Under the pieces are notes generated by a model, which was given only the letters and a program-made list of their open reading frames with translations, was not told where the DNA came from and made no database searches. Shown here piece by piece: positions 2,997 to 27,242 of a stretch of 64,000 nucleotides of DNA (position 1 is the stretch's first letter; each line of letters begins with the position of its first letter). Source of the DNA: Escherichia coli. Its GTDB lineage: Bacteria; Pseudomonadota; Gammaproteobacteria; Enterobacterales; Enterobacteriaceae. The stretch is taken from NCBI RefSeq assembly GCF_024223415.1, contig NZ_CP100501.1; one strand, written 5' to 3'. Position numbers and translations under genes: made by a program.

Positions 2997-3348
2997 TTTA
3001 CTCCCCCGCTCCGGCGGGGGTATGGCCTGCCGGGCCGCCGGAAAACCCTGGCAGGCTTACGCCTGCCTGAAATACAGGAGGGCCGCGCCTGCGGCGCTGC
3101 CCTTCCTGCCCGTCATGGTGTGAGGCATTTTTCTGTTTTGTCGTTTCTGTTGTTCTGATGCCCGGAGGCGGGGACACCCTTCGGCTCCCGGCTGCCTGGC
3201 GGCATCCGGTCGTCGGCCCGACTCCGACAGGCAGCTGCTGGCGCACCCGCCAGTCTCCGCCGAACCCGCTGGCGCGGTTTCGGGCTGCCGCTACGGTCCG
3301 ATGTCTGAAAAACCAGGCCTGCAGCGACCGTTCCGGTCGCGCCGCCCC

Positions 3349-3675
3349 TGTCGCGCCGGAAACGGCGCTCCCTGCACACCTGACGGTGTGTAAGGCCACT
3401 GCGCCTGATGGCGCAGTCAACCCTTCCGCCGCCACCCCTGCGGCCTGTTTCCCGCTGTGGACTTTCCGGGGGCTGAAGCGGCCACAACACGGGGCAGCCG
3501 TCCAGGGGAGAGATGTACCAGCCACAAAACTTTTTGCCGCAGGCGTCAAAAACTTTTGCGTCTGCCCCCGGACAACTGCCCCGTGCCGTGGCAGTCGCTG
3601 CCCCATCGGAAAGGTCCACTGCGGGGAGAAACCCCGAAGAAGTGGACGGCAGAAGGGGCTTTCGCCCCTCCGGGG
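3349..3675 (+). promoter_or_regulatory. Frpo/ssi-like single-strand promoter repeat, copy A
   Basis: About 330 bp GC-rich non-coding segment, near-identical to 6214-6543 (more than 80 bp identical around ccaggggagagatgtaccagccacaaaactttttgccgcaggcgtcaaaaacttttgcgtctgcccccggacaactgccccgtg); ends about 50 bp before the start codon at 3725. Confidence 0.55.
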
Positions 3676-3724
3676 GAGCAACCGGTCGGCCCGGCGACCT
3701 GATTCAGCAGAAGGAGACGTTTTC

Positions 3725-4159
3725 ATGACAGTCAGCAGCACGATTTCCGTTTTTTGCCGAGACGGGGTGTTCCGTACCGTTTACTGCCACCTGCACGGTG
3801 AGCCGACCTGGAACGGTCGCATCCTGCATACCCACTATGCCACCGGTCAGCTGGCCGAAGCCCTGGTTGAACACGGAGATATCCGTTGCCTCGGTCCCCG
3901 TTGCGACAAACCCGCCGGGCATACGCTTCAGAACCCGGTGGACGGTGTGACGGCTTATTACGGACGTGACAGTGGTTTCCGGATGGACAGTGAGGCGCGT
4001 GAGTACCGTTCTTTCAGGGAGGCTATTGCCACTGAAAGCACTGAAGAGGTGCGCTTCCATTATGTGTTCATCGACGGCTACTGGAAGGTGATGTACCGCA
4101 CGCCGGAAGGCTGGAAGATGAAAGCGCTCGCGCTGGCACTGCGTCGCTGTCCGGAATGA
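3725..4159 (+). CDS. hypothetical protein (144 aa), first gene downstream of promoter repeat A
   Basis: ATG at 3725 with GGAGACG SD-like sequence; MTVSSTISVFCRDGVFRTVYCHLHGEPTWNG; no recognised domain. Confidence 0.6.
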   Translation: MTVSSTISVFCRDGVFRTVYCHLHGEPTWNGRILHTHYATGQLAEALVEHGDIRCLGPRCDKPAGHTLQNPVDGVTAYYGRDSGFRMDSEAREYRSFREAIATESTEEVRFHYVFIDGYWKVMYRTPEGWKMKALALALRRCPE

Positions 4160-4250
4160 AAAAAAGCAGGGCGATAAACCCTGCCTCTCTCCGCCGCTGC
4201 TTCCCGGCCAGGAAGAGCGGCAGTCATCAACAACATAAGGAGAAATATTT

Positions 4251-4517
4251 GTGAGACCATCAATTATCTTCGCAACCGCCGAGTATGTAAAGCGTCTGCG
4301 TGAAGAGTGCCTGCGGGAGAATAAACCCCTGCACCGCCATACCCGCTTCAGACGTCAGGAGCTGGCACAGGATGAGATTAACCCGGACGTCCTGGCGATG
4401 AGCGGTCATATCGCCAGACGCTGCAGTGAGCAGAAGCGGGTGCGTATCCCCGCCATGAAAGTCAGCGAATGGGGCCACCTGCTCCGCGCGCTTGAAATTG
4501 AACGGGTCTGTCACTGA
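4251..4517 (+). CDS. hypothetical protein (88 aa, GTG start)
   Basis: AAGGAG SD 8 nt before GTG; lies between the 144-aa gene and rpn. Confidence 0.45.
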   Translation: MRPSIIFATAEYVKRLREECLRENKPLHRHTRFRRQELAQDEINPDVLAMSGHIARRCSEQKRVRIPAMKVSEWGHLLRALEIERVCH

Positions 4518-4581: not shown

Positions 4582-5460
4582 GTGAGTAAGAAGAAAAACA
4601 CCACAACGCCCACGCCGCATGATGCCGCGTTCCGGTCGTTCCTGGCGAATCCCGACGTTGCCAGGGATTTTCTGGAGTTGCATCTTCCTGCGGAGTACCG
4701 GCAGTTGTGCGACCTGTCCACCCTGAAGCTGGAACCCGCCACCTTTGTTGAGCCGGACCTGCATCAGTACGCCAGCGATATCCTCTGGAGTGTGAAAACC
4801 ACCGGGGGTGAAGACGGCTATGTTTATACGCTCATCGAGCACCAGAGCACCGAAAATCTGTACATGCCTTTTCGCATGTTACGTTACAGTGTGGCGGCGA
4901 TGCAGAGACATCTGGAGCAGCACAAAACGTTGCCACTGGTCATTCCGGTGCTGTTCTATCACGGTGAGCGCAGCCCGTACCCGTACAGCATGAACTGGCT
5001 GGACTGTTTTGAGAATCCGGCACTTGCGGCTAAAATATACACAAAGCCGTTTCCGCTGGTTGATATCACTGTCGTTGATGACAATGAAATCATGAACCAT
5101 CGCCGGATGGCCGCACTGACGCTGCTGATGAAGCATATCCGCCATCGTGACATGATGGAGCTGCTGGACAAACTCCCGCAGGTCATGGTGGAAATTTCAG
5201 ACGAGCAGGTGCGTGTTCTGATTCATTACATCGTTAACGCAGGGGACACTGTATCACCGGAATTTATGCGGGCGCTGGCCGAGCGCCTGCCGCAGCATGA
5301 GGATAAACTGATGACAATCGCAGAACGTCTTGAGCAGAAAGGTGCGCTTGAAAAAGCCCTGGCCATTGCGCGTCAGCTTCAGAAAATGGGGATGACACCT
5401 GAGCAGATTAAGCAGGCCACCGGACTTTCCGAAGCTGAACTGAAAAAAGTCATTCACTGA
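4582..5460 (+). CDS. rpn: Rpn family recombination-promoting nuclease (YhgA-like PD-(D/E)XK)
   Basis: AGGAGG SD then GTG; HDAAFRSFLANPDVARDFLELHLPAEYRQLCDLSTLKLE and FYHGERSPYPYS motifs as in E. coli RpnA-E; C-terminal tail MTIAERLEQKG...TGLSEAELKK. Confidence 0.8.
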   Translation: MSKKKNTTTPTPHDAAFRSFLANPDVARDFLELHLPAEYRQLCDLSTLKLEPATFVEPDLHQYASDILWSVKTTGGEDGYVYTLIEHQSTENLYMPFRMLRYSVAAMQRHLEQHKTLPLVIPVLFYHGERSPYPYSMNWLDCFENPALAAKIYTKPFPLVDITVVDDNEIMNHRRMAALTLLMKHIRHRDMMELLDKLPQVMVEISDEQVRVLIHYIVNAGDTVSPEFMRALAERLPQHEDKLMTIAERLEQKGALEKALAIARQLQKMGMTPEQIKQATGLSEAELKKVIH

Positions 5461-5521: not shown

Positions 5522-5728
5522 ATGACGATTGCAGAACGTCTTATACAGAAAGGTTTCGACGAGGGTTTTAAAGAAGGTTTTAAAGAAGGTTTTAAACAAG
5601 GAGCTCTTGAAGTGGCGCGGGAAATAGCCTGCCGGCTTCGGGATATAGGCTGGTCGCCGGAACGGATTCAGGAGGTCACGGGACTTTCCGGTGAAGAACT
5701 GAAAAAGCTGTTTCCTGATGAGCAGTAG
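5522..5728 (+). CDS. stand-alone small protein resembling the Rpn C-terminal domain (RpnS-like), 68 aa
   Basis: MTIAERLIQKG...ALEVAREIACRL...TGLSGEELKK aligns with the last ~49 aa of the upstream Rpn protein; contains three 12-bp tandem repeats encoding EGFK (5561-5596). Confidence 0.55.
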   Translation: MTIAERLIQKGFDEGFKEGFKEGFKQGALEVAREIACRLRDIGWSPERIQEVTGLSGEELKKLFPDEQ

Positions 5729-6213: not shown

Positions 6214-6543
6214 GTCGCGCCGGATGCGGCGCTCCCTGCACACCTTACGGTGTGTAAGGCCACTGCGCCTGATGGCGCAGCTGCCTCTGCCTGTCTGCCG
6301 CCGCACTGCGGCCTGTTCTCCGCAGACGGACTTTCCGGGGGTACATACACGACCACATCCCGTTTCAGTCGTCCAGGGGAGAGATGTACCAGCCACAAAA
6401 CTTTTTGCCGCAGGCGTCAAAAACTTTTGCGTCTGCCCCCGGACAACTGCCCCGTGACGTGGTGAGCGTCCCCCGTCGGAAAGGTCCACTGCGGGGAAAT
6501 CCCCGAAGACCCGGACGGCAGAAGGAGCTTCGCTCCTCCGGGA
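6214..6543 (+). promoter_or_regulatory. Frpo/ssi-like single-strand promoter repeat, copy B
   Basis: Near-identical to 3349-3675; ends about 45 bp before the start codon at 6587. Confidence 0.55.
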
Positions 6544-6586: not shown

Positions 6587-7438
6587 GTGATGAATCAGAC
6601 TTTACCCACTGCTGACCTGAATACTGCCGGCACGACAGATGTTATTCCGTCTGTGGCTATCGACCGCATCATCGCGCAGCGTAACGAAGGTATTGCACTG
6701 TTCATGCAGGCGATGGAATGCCTGGCGACAGCGCGCAGGATTCTGCTCGATGCTTCCGGTGACATTTTTCTCTACGGGTTTGAAGACTGCGTGACTGACT
6801 CCGTTCGATGCATGGATAAACCGGAAGAAGCGAAAAGGAATATCACCCGTCTTGCCGACCGGAAAATCTGGGACCGCCTGATGACAGATACGGGCATGTA
6901 CACCTTCATGAGTTCATGCCAGCGTGATGAGTGGAACAGCCAGCTGATGAGCGACACCTGTCCTGAAATCACCCTGGACAATGTACTGGCAACATTCCGC
7001 CATCTTAATGCCAGCAAGATGCAGACATTTGAACAGGGACTGATTGATGTCTACCGGAAATTGTCATGGGATTACAGAACCAATAATCCCTGCCGTCTGG
7101 GCAAGAAAATCATTATTGAAAACCTGCTGTACCGCTGGAGTAACGGGCGTGTGACGCTGGACTGCAGCAGACGGGAGGCACTGGATGACCTGGTACGTCC
7201 GTTTTATCTGCTGGAGGGGCGCAACGTTCCTGACTTCAGGAACAGCATCGGGGCGCAGTATGGTGAATTTCTCAGGAACGGCGACAATGTCGGTAAGTTG
7301 TTAGAAGGGGAATATTTTACGGTGCGTGGCTACCAGAAAGGGACCGTACACATTGTCTTTAAGCGTTCTGACCTTGTTGAAAAACTGAATGATATTATTG
7401 CACGGCATTATCCTGGTGCATTGCCGCCACGAGTCTGA
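6587..7438 (+). CDS. hypothetical protein (283 aa), first gene downstream of promoter repeat B
   Basis: GGAGACA SD-like then ATGATG; no catalytic motif recognised; followed by a hairpin terminator. Confidence 0.6.
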   Translation: MMNQTLPTADLNTAGTTDVIPSVAIDRIIAQRNEGIALFMQAMECLATARRILLDASGDIFLYGFEDCVTDSVRCMDKPEEAKRNITRLADRKIWDRLMTDTGMYTFMSSCQRDEWNSQLMSDTCPEITLDNVLATFRHLNASKMQTFEQGLIDVYRKLSWDYRTNNPCRLGKKIIIENLLYRWSNGRVTLDCSRREALDDLVRPFYLLEGRNVPDFRNSIGAQYGEFLRNGDNVGKLLEGEYFTVRGYQKGTVHIVFKRSDLVEKLNDIIARHYPGALPPRV

Positions 7439-7989: not shown

Positions 7990-8090
7990 GAAAAACGGGA
8001 CAGGATGTGTAATCGTATAACCGCGCACGCACGGCTATACGATTACCACCTGGTCAGGGCTTAGCCCCGACACCCCGGTAAGGAGCAGAC
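7990..8090. other. origin of transfer (oriT) region
   Basis: Intergenic region immediately upstream of nikA with 11-bp inverted repeat gtaatcgtata (8009-8019) / tatacgattac (8036-8046); nick position not determinable by eye. Confidence 0.55.
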
Positions 8091-8091
8091 C

Positions 8092-8424
8092 ATGAGTGAG
8101 AAGAAAACCCGAAGTGGCAGTGAGAAACGGCAAAAGAATGTCCTCATTGCTGTTCGTTTTTCACCAGAAGAGGCTGAGATTGTTAAAGAAAAGGCAGAAA
8201 AAAACGGACTGACAGTTTCAACTCTGATAAGAAAAACTGTGCTGGGAAAACAGATAAATGCCCGCATTGATGAAGATTTTTTGAAAGAGCTGATGCGTCT
8301 TGGTCGCCTGCAGAAGCATCTGTTTGTGGAAGGAAAACGCACGGGAGATAAAGAGTATGCAGAGGTTCTCGTTGCTATTACAGAACTTGCTAATACTCTG
8401 CGAAGAGATTTAATGGGACGCTGA
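8092..8424 (+). CDS. nikA: NikA relaxosome accessory protein (ribbon-helix-helix)
   Basis: 110 aa; NGLTVSTLIRKTVLGKQIN...FLKELMRLGRLQKHLFVEGKRTGDKEYAEVLVAITE as in IncI1 NikA. Confidence 0.85.
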   Translation: MSEKKTRSGSEKRQKNVLIAVRFSPEEAEIVKEKAEKNGLTVSTLIRKTVLGKQINARIDEDFLKELMRLGRLQKHLFVEGKRTGDKEYAEVLVAITELANTLRRDLMGR

Positions 8425-23666: not shown

Positions 23667-23976
23667 GGGGATTCCTCCATAGATGAATGGATAAATTTCG
23701 GGATTAAGTCGGGTGGCATGAATGCGAATCAGCGCCGGTAATAACCGGACAGGAATGAATTCAACAGGACATTTTTACAGAGAAGAGCGAACGGCAGAAG
23801 GTGGTGGGAGACAGGTACAAAAAAACCGACTGGTGAGGCCGGTTTTTTTGCGATTCCGGGGTGGAGTTGGTGGCTCTGACCGGAGGAAGTCTCTTTTCAG
23901 CTAACAATGAGAGAGCTGTTGTGACAGGCAATGTAAGAGTAAGCAGCAGTGATTTCCTCCATTGACGGAGAAACGG

Positions 23977-26687: not shown

Positions 26688-26941
26688 CGGTGGGGTACAA
26701 ACGCAGAAATTTTGTTGTCATTACATCATCAGTTTTAGCCTGCAGAGACGCTGAAAAATCAGCGTTTTCAGACCCTGTTCAGGTTAGTGAATATTCTTGC
26801 CTGGCCTTTCGGCAATATCAATCCCCTGATGTGTGCACACGTAGTCACTTTCCGGCTTTATTTCTGTCCCTGACACAAAATACGTGGTGGCATGAAAAGG
26901 ATTGTGGCGGACAGGAAAACGATTAGAATAGCGGCGGGCGC

Positions 26942-27235
26942 TTGAGGCTGTATGCCGAAAGCGTTTTGTGGACGGCATGTAGCAGAAAGCCCCAGGCGAT
27001 TTTTTTATCAATCAACCCAGGGCCCACTGTAATGCCTAGACAACATTATAGTAGCCCGATGACGGCCGAAAGGCAATGGAGGGGCTGCGATGCCACAACG
27101 AACGTTTTTAATGATGTTAATCGTCGTCTGTGTGACGATACTGTGTTTTGTCTGGATGGTGAGGGATTCGCTTTGCGGATTTCGTATCGAGCAGGGAAAT
27201 ACGGTGCTTGTGGCAACGTTAGCCTACGAAGTTAA
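26942..27235 (+). CDS. pndC: PndC-like overlapping reading frame (mok analogue) of the pnd locus
   Basis: ORF overlapping pndA in another frame, as in hok/mok architecture. Confidence 0.4.
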   Translation: MRLYAESVLWTACSRKPQAIFLSINPGPTVMPRQHYSSPMTAERQWRGCDATTNVFNDVNRRLCDDTVFCLDGEGFALRISYRAGKYGACGNVSLRS

Positions 27236-27242
27236 ACGTTAA
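27090..27242 (+). CDS. pndA: PndA, Hok/Gef-family type I toxin (50 aa)
   Basis: MPQRTFLMMLIVVCVTILCFVWMVRDSLCGFRIEQGNTVLVATLAYEVKR; hydrophobic TM plus conserved Hok-family C-terminus; below ORF-track cutoff. Confidence 0.8.
   Translation: MPQRTFLMMLIVVCVTILCFVWMVRDSLCGFRIEQGNTVLVATLAYEVKR

Follow-up and report, generated by a model that had tools for sequence, protein, structure and literature searches.

What do two small genes at the entry end of an I-complex plasmid do, and do they do it together? The question is raised by positions 3725-4517 of a 64,000-nucleotide stretch of Escherichia coli DNA on contig NZ_CP100501.1 (the window; all positions refer to it), which shares 99.6% identity with IncK2/Z (I-complex) plasmids of E. 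coli, pTMSA1088 amongst them. A sequence-only reading had described here an uncharacterised gene pair behind a promoter repeat, with good ribosome-binding sites and no recognisable domain, and had placed it amongst early-expressed anti-defence functions. The two open reading frames (ORFs) are as that reading gave them. Both are on the plus strand, ORF1 running from an ATG at 3725 to a stop at 4159 (144 aa) and ORF2 from a GTG at 4251 to a stop at 4517 (88 aa), and RefSeq has the identical two coding sequences, as 'hypothetical protein', in a 99.6%-identical IncK2/Z plasmid. Read from the sequence, the ribosome-binding sites are AGGAG at 3712-3716 and AAGGAG at 4237-4242, each 8 nt before the start codon, and the GTG start of ORF2, which is shared with pTMSA1088, is an ATG in pESBL, pS261 and IncI contigs. 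In R64-style nomenclature ORF1 is ygcA and ORF2 is ygdA; the genes were thus already named and their families tabulated (Samuel et al, 2024; PMC11541004), and 'uncharacterised' holds for their function only. The answer favoured here, which is given about an even chance of being correct, is that ygcA and ygdA are independent, transiently expressed accessory genes of the leading region with a role in establishment or counter-defence.

The argument starts from the DNA immediately upstream of ygcA. Positions 3280-3724 form, by fold and homology, a hairpin on the minus strand of the ssi/Frpo class-1 type of single-stranded DNA (ssDNA) promoter, the 'promoter repeat A' of the sequence-only reading, with a direct repeat copy at 6214-6542. 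On the transferred, minus strand the predicted folding energy is -144.9 kcal/mol (z = -10.3), a stability reached by 0 of 100 shuffled sequences, while the plus strand gives -127.9 kcal/mol (z = -7.7). Repeat A shares 92% identity with the copy that directly precedes ygcA in pESBL, and 83% and 85% with those before ssb and ygfB, respectively; these three copies of the near-identical pESBL-EA11 (IncI1) match the published description of ssi1-3 (PMC12672017). Repeat A is also matched in part at two sites of an IncF locus (L010), of which one precedes ydaB. In pESBL, Wen et al (2025; PMC12672017) describe six operons with ssDNA promoters, whose induction in transconjugants reaches ~500-fold. Three of the six have hairpins that equal ssi1-3 of ColIb-P9 as their promoters, with the transcription starts of the ssi promoters mapped by 5′ rapid amplification of cDNA ends. 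Judged by its sequence the hairpin of the window is an ssi-type promoter and, from its position and the 92% identity, ygcA opens one of the ssi-driven operons. Induction from such a promoter is published for pESBL (PMC12672017) and would extend to the window by analogy.

The region around the two genes is the leading region, with oriT near 8000. That the minus strand of the window leads in transfer, 5′ end first, is established IncI1 biology. Since the transferred strand (T-strand) is the minus strand, plus-strand genes use it as their template, and ygcA and ygdA lie on the plus strand, pointing towards nikA, nikB and oriT. This direction of transfer agrees with the tables of Samuel et al (2024; PMC11541004), in which both families are assigned to 'strand 1' with median positions 6 and 7 from oriT. 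The genes sit, as had been proposed, between ardA (ending at 2996) and rpn (4582-5460), directly 3′ of repeat A and within a leading-region island, psiB-psiA-ardA...rpn...DUF4942-oriT. During conjugation the minus strand would enter the recipient 5′ first from oriT; the hairpin, once inside, would fold and recruit the host RNA polymerase, and transcription would proceed rightwards through ygcA and ygdA and probably on into rpn, in a burst of expression that would end once the complementary strand had been made. YgcA, as an enzyme or a binding protein, may then neutralise or forestall the response of the host to the incoming DNA, either as counter-defence or in host takeover. For YgdA the likeliest role would be to bind, while the plasmid establishes itself, either nucleic acid or a protein of the host. 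It is by analogy that a counter-defence or host-manipulation role is suggested for the two genes.

Whether the two products work together can be judged from how the genes are distributed. They are adjacent and co-directional, with 91 nt between them, are probably co-transcribed, and stay together across I-complex plasmids, including those with an alternative ygcA. This arrangement might be expected of a two-gene unit, an enzyme with its regulator or inhibitor or something resembling a toxin-antitoxin pair. However, homologs of ygdA are present in more than 3000 records of IncF and other plasmids, directly behind Frpo-like repeats and without a ygcA homolog, and none was found near the ygdA homologs of IncF plasmids or of Serratia. 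Phage homologs of YgdA were looked for and not found and, conversely, at 93 distant loci encoding ygcA homologs there were 0 ygdA homologs within 4-6 kb. In pESBL, moreover, both genes tolerate transposon insertions (PMC4288162), which argues against one of them being an antitoxin. A natural replacement of one gene but not the other points the same way. When the window is compared with IncI contigs (L004-L007) the backbone is 92-100% identical in segments of 150 nt, whereas 3751-4200 is only 57-67% identical; the replaced segment, 3751-4250, comprises ygcA and the spacer downstream of it. The alternative YgcA (P0113) is 54% identical to that of the window, while YgdA on either side of the swap is 97% identical at the protein level. 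An obligate pair was rejected on the disjoint distributions of the two families together with this ygcA-only swap, which indicate co-transcribed neighbours rather than an obligate two-component system. The 'gene pair' of the sequence-only reading is therefore not a functional one, and a two-gene unit of any of these kinds is decidedly improbable.

In the spacer between the genes a small hairpin, GCAGGG-CGATAAA-CCCTGC at 4166-4184, can be read from the sequence, though it was not flagged by a consensus scan. A run of seven A residues precedes the stem on the plus strand, so that on the minus strand the stem is followed by seven T residues. In this it resembles an intrinsic terminator of leftward transcription, which is its probable role, and it is unlikely to terminate the ygcA-ygdA transcript strongly.

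YgcA has no match in Pfam, NCBIfam or PADLOC, and the PDB was empty both by sequence and by profile; the same three family libraries yielded nothing for its canonical relatives or for 94 aligned homologs, none of which had a significant Pfam match. The absence of a recognisable domain had been correctly noted. The protein does match PHROG 1987/23089, phage families listed as of unknown function, with an E-value of 1.2e-20 between residues 1-126 and positions 1-118 of the 128-position profile, where canonical members of PHROG 1987 reach 6e-33. These families include the 'T4-like gene cluster 66' protein of cyanophage S-PM2 and proteins of GAP32, BF and CBB, and they share with YgcA its length and predicted fold as well as the motifs YCH.DG, GH and YGRD; what sets YgcA apart is that its gene follows an ssDNA promoter and belongs to a conjugative plasmid, and that its residues differ at several conserved positions considered below. 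An exhaustive HMMER search collected 1836 representative clusters at a threshold of E <= 1e-3, of which 241 remain at E <= 1e-10. At least 584 stretches of IMG/VR encode relatives, in a viral scan that used a 16-sequence subset of the 94-member alignment, and homologs in GenBank come from jumbo phages (GAP32, BF and CBB), T4-like cyanophages and Vibrio phages. At the loci inspected the relatives are found in arrays of small co-directional unannotated ORFs, and eight further look-ups of context gave phage arrays of small unannotated ORFs with the exception of one Salmonella contig flanked by ArdC, where the homolog (43% identity) adjoins two ArdC-like genes. Longer relatives have only low-complexity or unrelated tails, with no informative domain fusions. 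These similarities place YgcA, as a divergent member, in a large family of phages and mobile genetic elements that lacks annotation.

The consensus of the 94-member alignment is M.TRS.I.V...DG....VYCH.DGY...NG..L..HYN..E.A..LV..GD.S.L......P.GH.F..P..G.TV.YGRDRGE...EY.Y.F..G.W, with His22, Gly51, His66, Arg81, Asp82, Trp120 and the tyrosines at 20, 38, 79 and 113 near-invariant. His66 is conserved in 100% of the sequences, His22 in 99%, Asp82 in 97% and Asp24, which is a histidine in this YgcA, in 91%. The His/Cys motifs CHLHGEPTWNGRILHTHY and CLGPRCDKPAGH, from which metal binding had been suspected, are present in the 144-aa protein. The suspicion draws partial support from the conservation of His22, His66 and Asp82 but not from the cysteines or His35, which are not consistently conserved: Cys21 is found in 83% of the sequences, Cys60 in 37% and the other cysteines in no more, and His35 is not conserved. 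The set of conserved polar residues (His22, Asp/His24, His66, Arg81, Asp82 and the tyrosines at 20, 38, 79 and 113) suggests a pocket for a metal or small ligand, and YgcA probably binds one or the other. The structure prediction and fold search that had been proposed gave a very confident model of YgcA, drawing on a deep family, for which there is no neighbour in the PDB; Foldseek against AFDB50 returned only uncharacterised proteins and copies bearing the name 'PndC'. The model suggests that YgcA is a compact alpha/beta protein.

YgdA is a different case. There is no match to it in Pfam, NCBIfam or PADLOC, nor to any solved structure, and close relatives are found only on plasmids of enterobacteria. 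By tblastn and a profile search it is related to YdaB/YdfB, proteins of 76 aa that IncF and other plasmids encode, with 38-46% identity over residues 29-88, and the family comprises 347 clusters at E <= 0.01, some of which are named YdfB or YdaB by their sources. The family motif is GRHIA...V.IP.M..EWG.VLR.LE..R, and Arg32, Arg35, Ile54, Val64, Pro67, Gly75, Leu78, Arg79, Leu81 and Arg85 are invariant. On this homology YgdA belongs to the plasmid-restricted YdaB/YdfB/YgdA family, the largest of the leading-region-enriched families (family 1) of Samuel et al (2024; PMC11541004), with 4739 members described as 'Uncharacterized; Phage protein'. Both YgdA and YdaB/YdfB are encoded in leading regions behind Frpo-like repeats; YgdA has a longer N-terminal helix and is second in its operon, after ygcA, while the IncF copies come first. 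One IncF plasmid has the homolog directly after an Frpo-like repeat, as the first gene, followed by genes for a DUF3560 protein and an S-adenosylmethionine (SAM) methyltransferase. YgdA, with an isoelectric point (pI) of 9.9 and an Arg-rich linker, is modelled as a small, very basic three-helix protein.

That the genes might be neutral passengers or mis-called ORFs is hardly credible. It is true that no phenotype was found when pESBL was subjected to transposon-insertion sequencing (TnSeq) on transfer into E. coli K-12 (PMC4288162), but the frames are intact with good ribosome-binding sites and mostly synonymous changes across thousands of plasmids. In PLSDB 2014 plasmid records carry ygcA, nearly all at least 95% identical to the allele of the window, and both frames are intact in about 2000 or more plasmid records. 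Close relatives show few substitutions, biased towards synonymous ones, with a ratio of nonsynonymous to synonymous polymorphism (pN/pS) of 0.1-0.3, calculated from small counts. In addition the IncK2 core genome includes ygcA (PMC12987596), both families show a significant leading-region enrichment (Samuel et al, 2024; PMC11541004), and the confident fold prediction for YgcA from a deep family is not what a mis-called ORF would give. Each of the two ygcA alleles is also conserved internally, the differences being few and mostly synonymous. That ygcA alone has been exchanged for a 54%-identical allele, in plasmids that are otherwise nearly identical, fits turnover driven by conflict.

The same TnSeq data bear on what kind of function this would be. 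In Table 2 of that study (PMC4288162) Hp16, which corresponds to ygcA, scores 0.76 for non-essential, 0.24 for essential for maintenance and 0.00 for required for transfer, and Hp17, which corresponds to ygdA, scores 1.00 for non-essential. ArdA, PsiB and KlcA have similar scores, and on their own scores ygcA and ygdA are both dispensable for transfer into K-12. For 'essential for maintenance' nearly all the leading-region neighbours of ygcA score 0.00, with Ssb and Hp14 at 0.02-0.03 (PMC4288162); the 0.24 of ygcA may come from few insertion sites or from a mild effect. Dispensability in the permissive K-12 is what would be expected of conditional establishment or counter-defence genes, and is no positive proof of such a role. 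One alternative is that the products serve the processing of plasmid DNA at establishment (priming, conversion of single-stranded to double-stranded DNA, recircularisation or protection of the T-strand) and not counter-immunity. The genes are indeed in the leading region near ssb and psiAB, the ssi element upstream also primes complementary-strand synthesis, and the pI and Arg-rich linker of YgdA are compatible with nucleic-acid binding. However, neither gene is required for the transfer of pESBL (PMC4288162), relatives of YgcA are found in the variable accessory regions of very different phages and not in their replication modules, and wholesale replacement of the ygcA allele would be unusual for a core DNA-processing factor. 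A role in DNA processing is on balance unlikely.

The establishment or counter-defence reading is helped by comparison with known systems, within limits. YgcA and YgdA share with ArdA, KlcA/ArdB and PsiB, the zygotically induced anti-restriction and anti-SOS proteins of leading regions, their island, their orientation with the T-strand as template, by homology the control by ssDNA promoters, and an equal dispensability in K-12; there is no similarity of sequence or fold, and the likeness is one of context. Acb1, Apyc1 and Tad1 are small phage anti-defence enzymes or sponges that are encoded amongst small early or accessory genes. YgcA is of similar size, and its conserved His, Asp, Arg and Tyr residues might, by analogy, line a nucleotide or metal pocket; no homology was detected, and the 2H (HxT/S) and metallo-beta-lactamase motifs are absent by inspection. 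A bolder proposal is that the family of ~1800 clusters to which YgcA belongs is a new class of small enzymes or ligand binders of new fold, used by phages and conjugative plasmids to disable, in the first minutes after entry, an immune or stress pathway that is widespread in hosts, with the two divergent IncI alleles reflecting a switch of specificity against host variants. This is possible but doubtful.

Several observations weigh against a counter-defence role. The literature on ygcA, ygdA, ydaB, ydfB and the PHROG identifiers yielded no functional study. Neither protein is similar in sequence or structure to a known anti-defence protein, and Pfam scans of both and of all 94 aligned homologs gave no significant match to the anti-restriction and anti-defence families that Pfam contains (ArdA PF07275, ArdB/KlcA, ArdC, Acb3 and others), the match of one YgcA family member to Acb3 being non-significant (E 0.05). 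Clustering of the neighbours at 80 IMG/VR loci, using a crude greedy longest-ORF gene call, revealed no conserved partner from which a pathway could be suggested: no neighbouring family occurred at more than 15 of the 80 loci, and the commonest came from syntenic relatives. The YgcA of the window departs from the consensus at the highly conserved positions T3V, D24H, Y26E, S54R and R83S, and also at E85F, so that, should the family consist of enzymes, the one encoded here may have lost its activity or changed its target. S54R and R83S are common to both IncI alleles and may represent a compensated contact. The model of YgdA is of moderate confidence (predicted local distance difference test, pLDDT, 76.7) and its fold matches are non-specific. 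As for expression, no -35 or -10 promoter hexamers were found in the hairpin, by consensus scan or by eye, and it is because they come first after an ssi promoter that ygcA and ygdA themselves would be expected, by analogy, to be induced.

The name that ORF1 widely carries suggests something else again. Many GenBank and UniProt records call it 'post-segregation killing protein PndC', PndC is drawn in the leading region by Benz & Hall (2023), and it is because of this database name that Samuel et al (2024; PMC11541004) list the ygcA family, their number 23 with 2203 members, as 'Hok/Sok TA related', that is, related to toxin-antitoxin (TA) systems. ORF1 would on this account be the mok-like leader frame of a pnd (hok/sok-type) killing system. 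Apart from the database names and the use of the name in the literature nothing speaks for this, and it is almost certainly wrong. A search of the whole window with Rfam places a sok RNA only at 26936-27092 (125.6 bits), where the Hok-family toxin PndA (50 aa) is encoded at 27090-27242 with its own overlapping leader frame at 26942-27235. Against that leader frame the best BLASTP alignment of ORF1 covers 7 residues (E 0.12), no Hok-like hydrophobic ORF overlaps or adjoins ORF1 at 3725-4159, its homologs are standalone globular proteins of 130-150 aa in phages of many phyla, and RefSeq now has 'hypothetical protein'. With no Sok RNA, no overlapping Hok toxin and no similarity to the true frame, ORF1 was rejected as PndC; all it has in common with a PndC/Mok leader is the database name. 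The authentic pnd locus is 26936-27242, to which the PndC name belongs, and neither YgcA nor YgdA is related to pnd post-segregational killing. Taken as a whole, the interpretation of the sequence-only reading is partly supported. An open frame of 333 codons (3158-4159) spans the G+C-rich ssi hairpin and continues into ygcA, which accounts for the over-long 'PndC' entries of 184-251 aa in UniProt and NCBI.

The remainder of the region has the gene order psiB-psiA-ygaA-ardA-[ssi]-ygcA-ygdA-rpn-...-ygfB-nikA-nikB, with psiB at 285-722 and psiA at 719-1438, followed by ygaA and ardA. The DUF4942 gene ygfB (6587-7438) lies directly after the second copy of the repeat, and nikA begins at 8092 and the relaxase gene nikB at 8436. 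In pESBL-EA11 (16517-16906) and pS261 an additional gene of 129 aa, ccgAII, is found between ygdA and rpn; it is absent from the window and from pTMSA1088, and marks a second point of variation in the operon. After rpn there is a 68-aa ORF at 5522-5728 on the plus strand and then a helix-turn-helix (HTH) gene on the minus strand. The 68-aa product, which contains a GFKEGFKEGFK repeat, is 46% identical to Rpn residues 244-290 (BLASTP, E 1.7e-12), and the equivalent small ORF of related IncI loci gives a faint match to HTH_Rpn_C; the ORF looks like a free-standing mini-gene for the C-terminus of Rpn. Elsewhere in the window, 12391-12477 (+), 18042-18158 (-) and 23817-23904 (-) are two matches to ALIL pseudoknots, which are frameshift elements of the IS3 family, and an AgrB-like antisense RNA. 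The annotation of pESBL has dqlB, a gene for a DinQ-like type I toxin, in the corresponding region, between the Hok-family gene and excA.

In E. coli and Salmonella of human and poultry origin, plasmids of the I-complex (IncI1, IncK and IncB/O) are major carriers of genes for extended-spectrum beta-lactamases (ESBL) and AmpC. How well these plasmids succeed is governed by the genes expressed in the first minutes after entry, and ygcA and ygdA share their island with ardA and psiB and have a copy of an ssi-type promoter of their own, in ~2000 sequenced plasmids. The genes had already been catalogued, and what is new is their reclassification and the nature of the YgcA family. The reclassification matters in practice, since the PndC label led a large comparative study to count the ygcA family as toxin-antitoxin-related. 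The natural polymorphism of two ygcA alleles provides a ready-made experiment on specificity, and the YgcA family, which is very large, spans phages and plasmids and combines a confident model with the lack of a Pfam entry or solved structure, is a tractable target for structural work and for the study of anti-defence.

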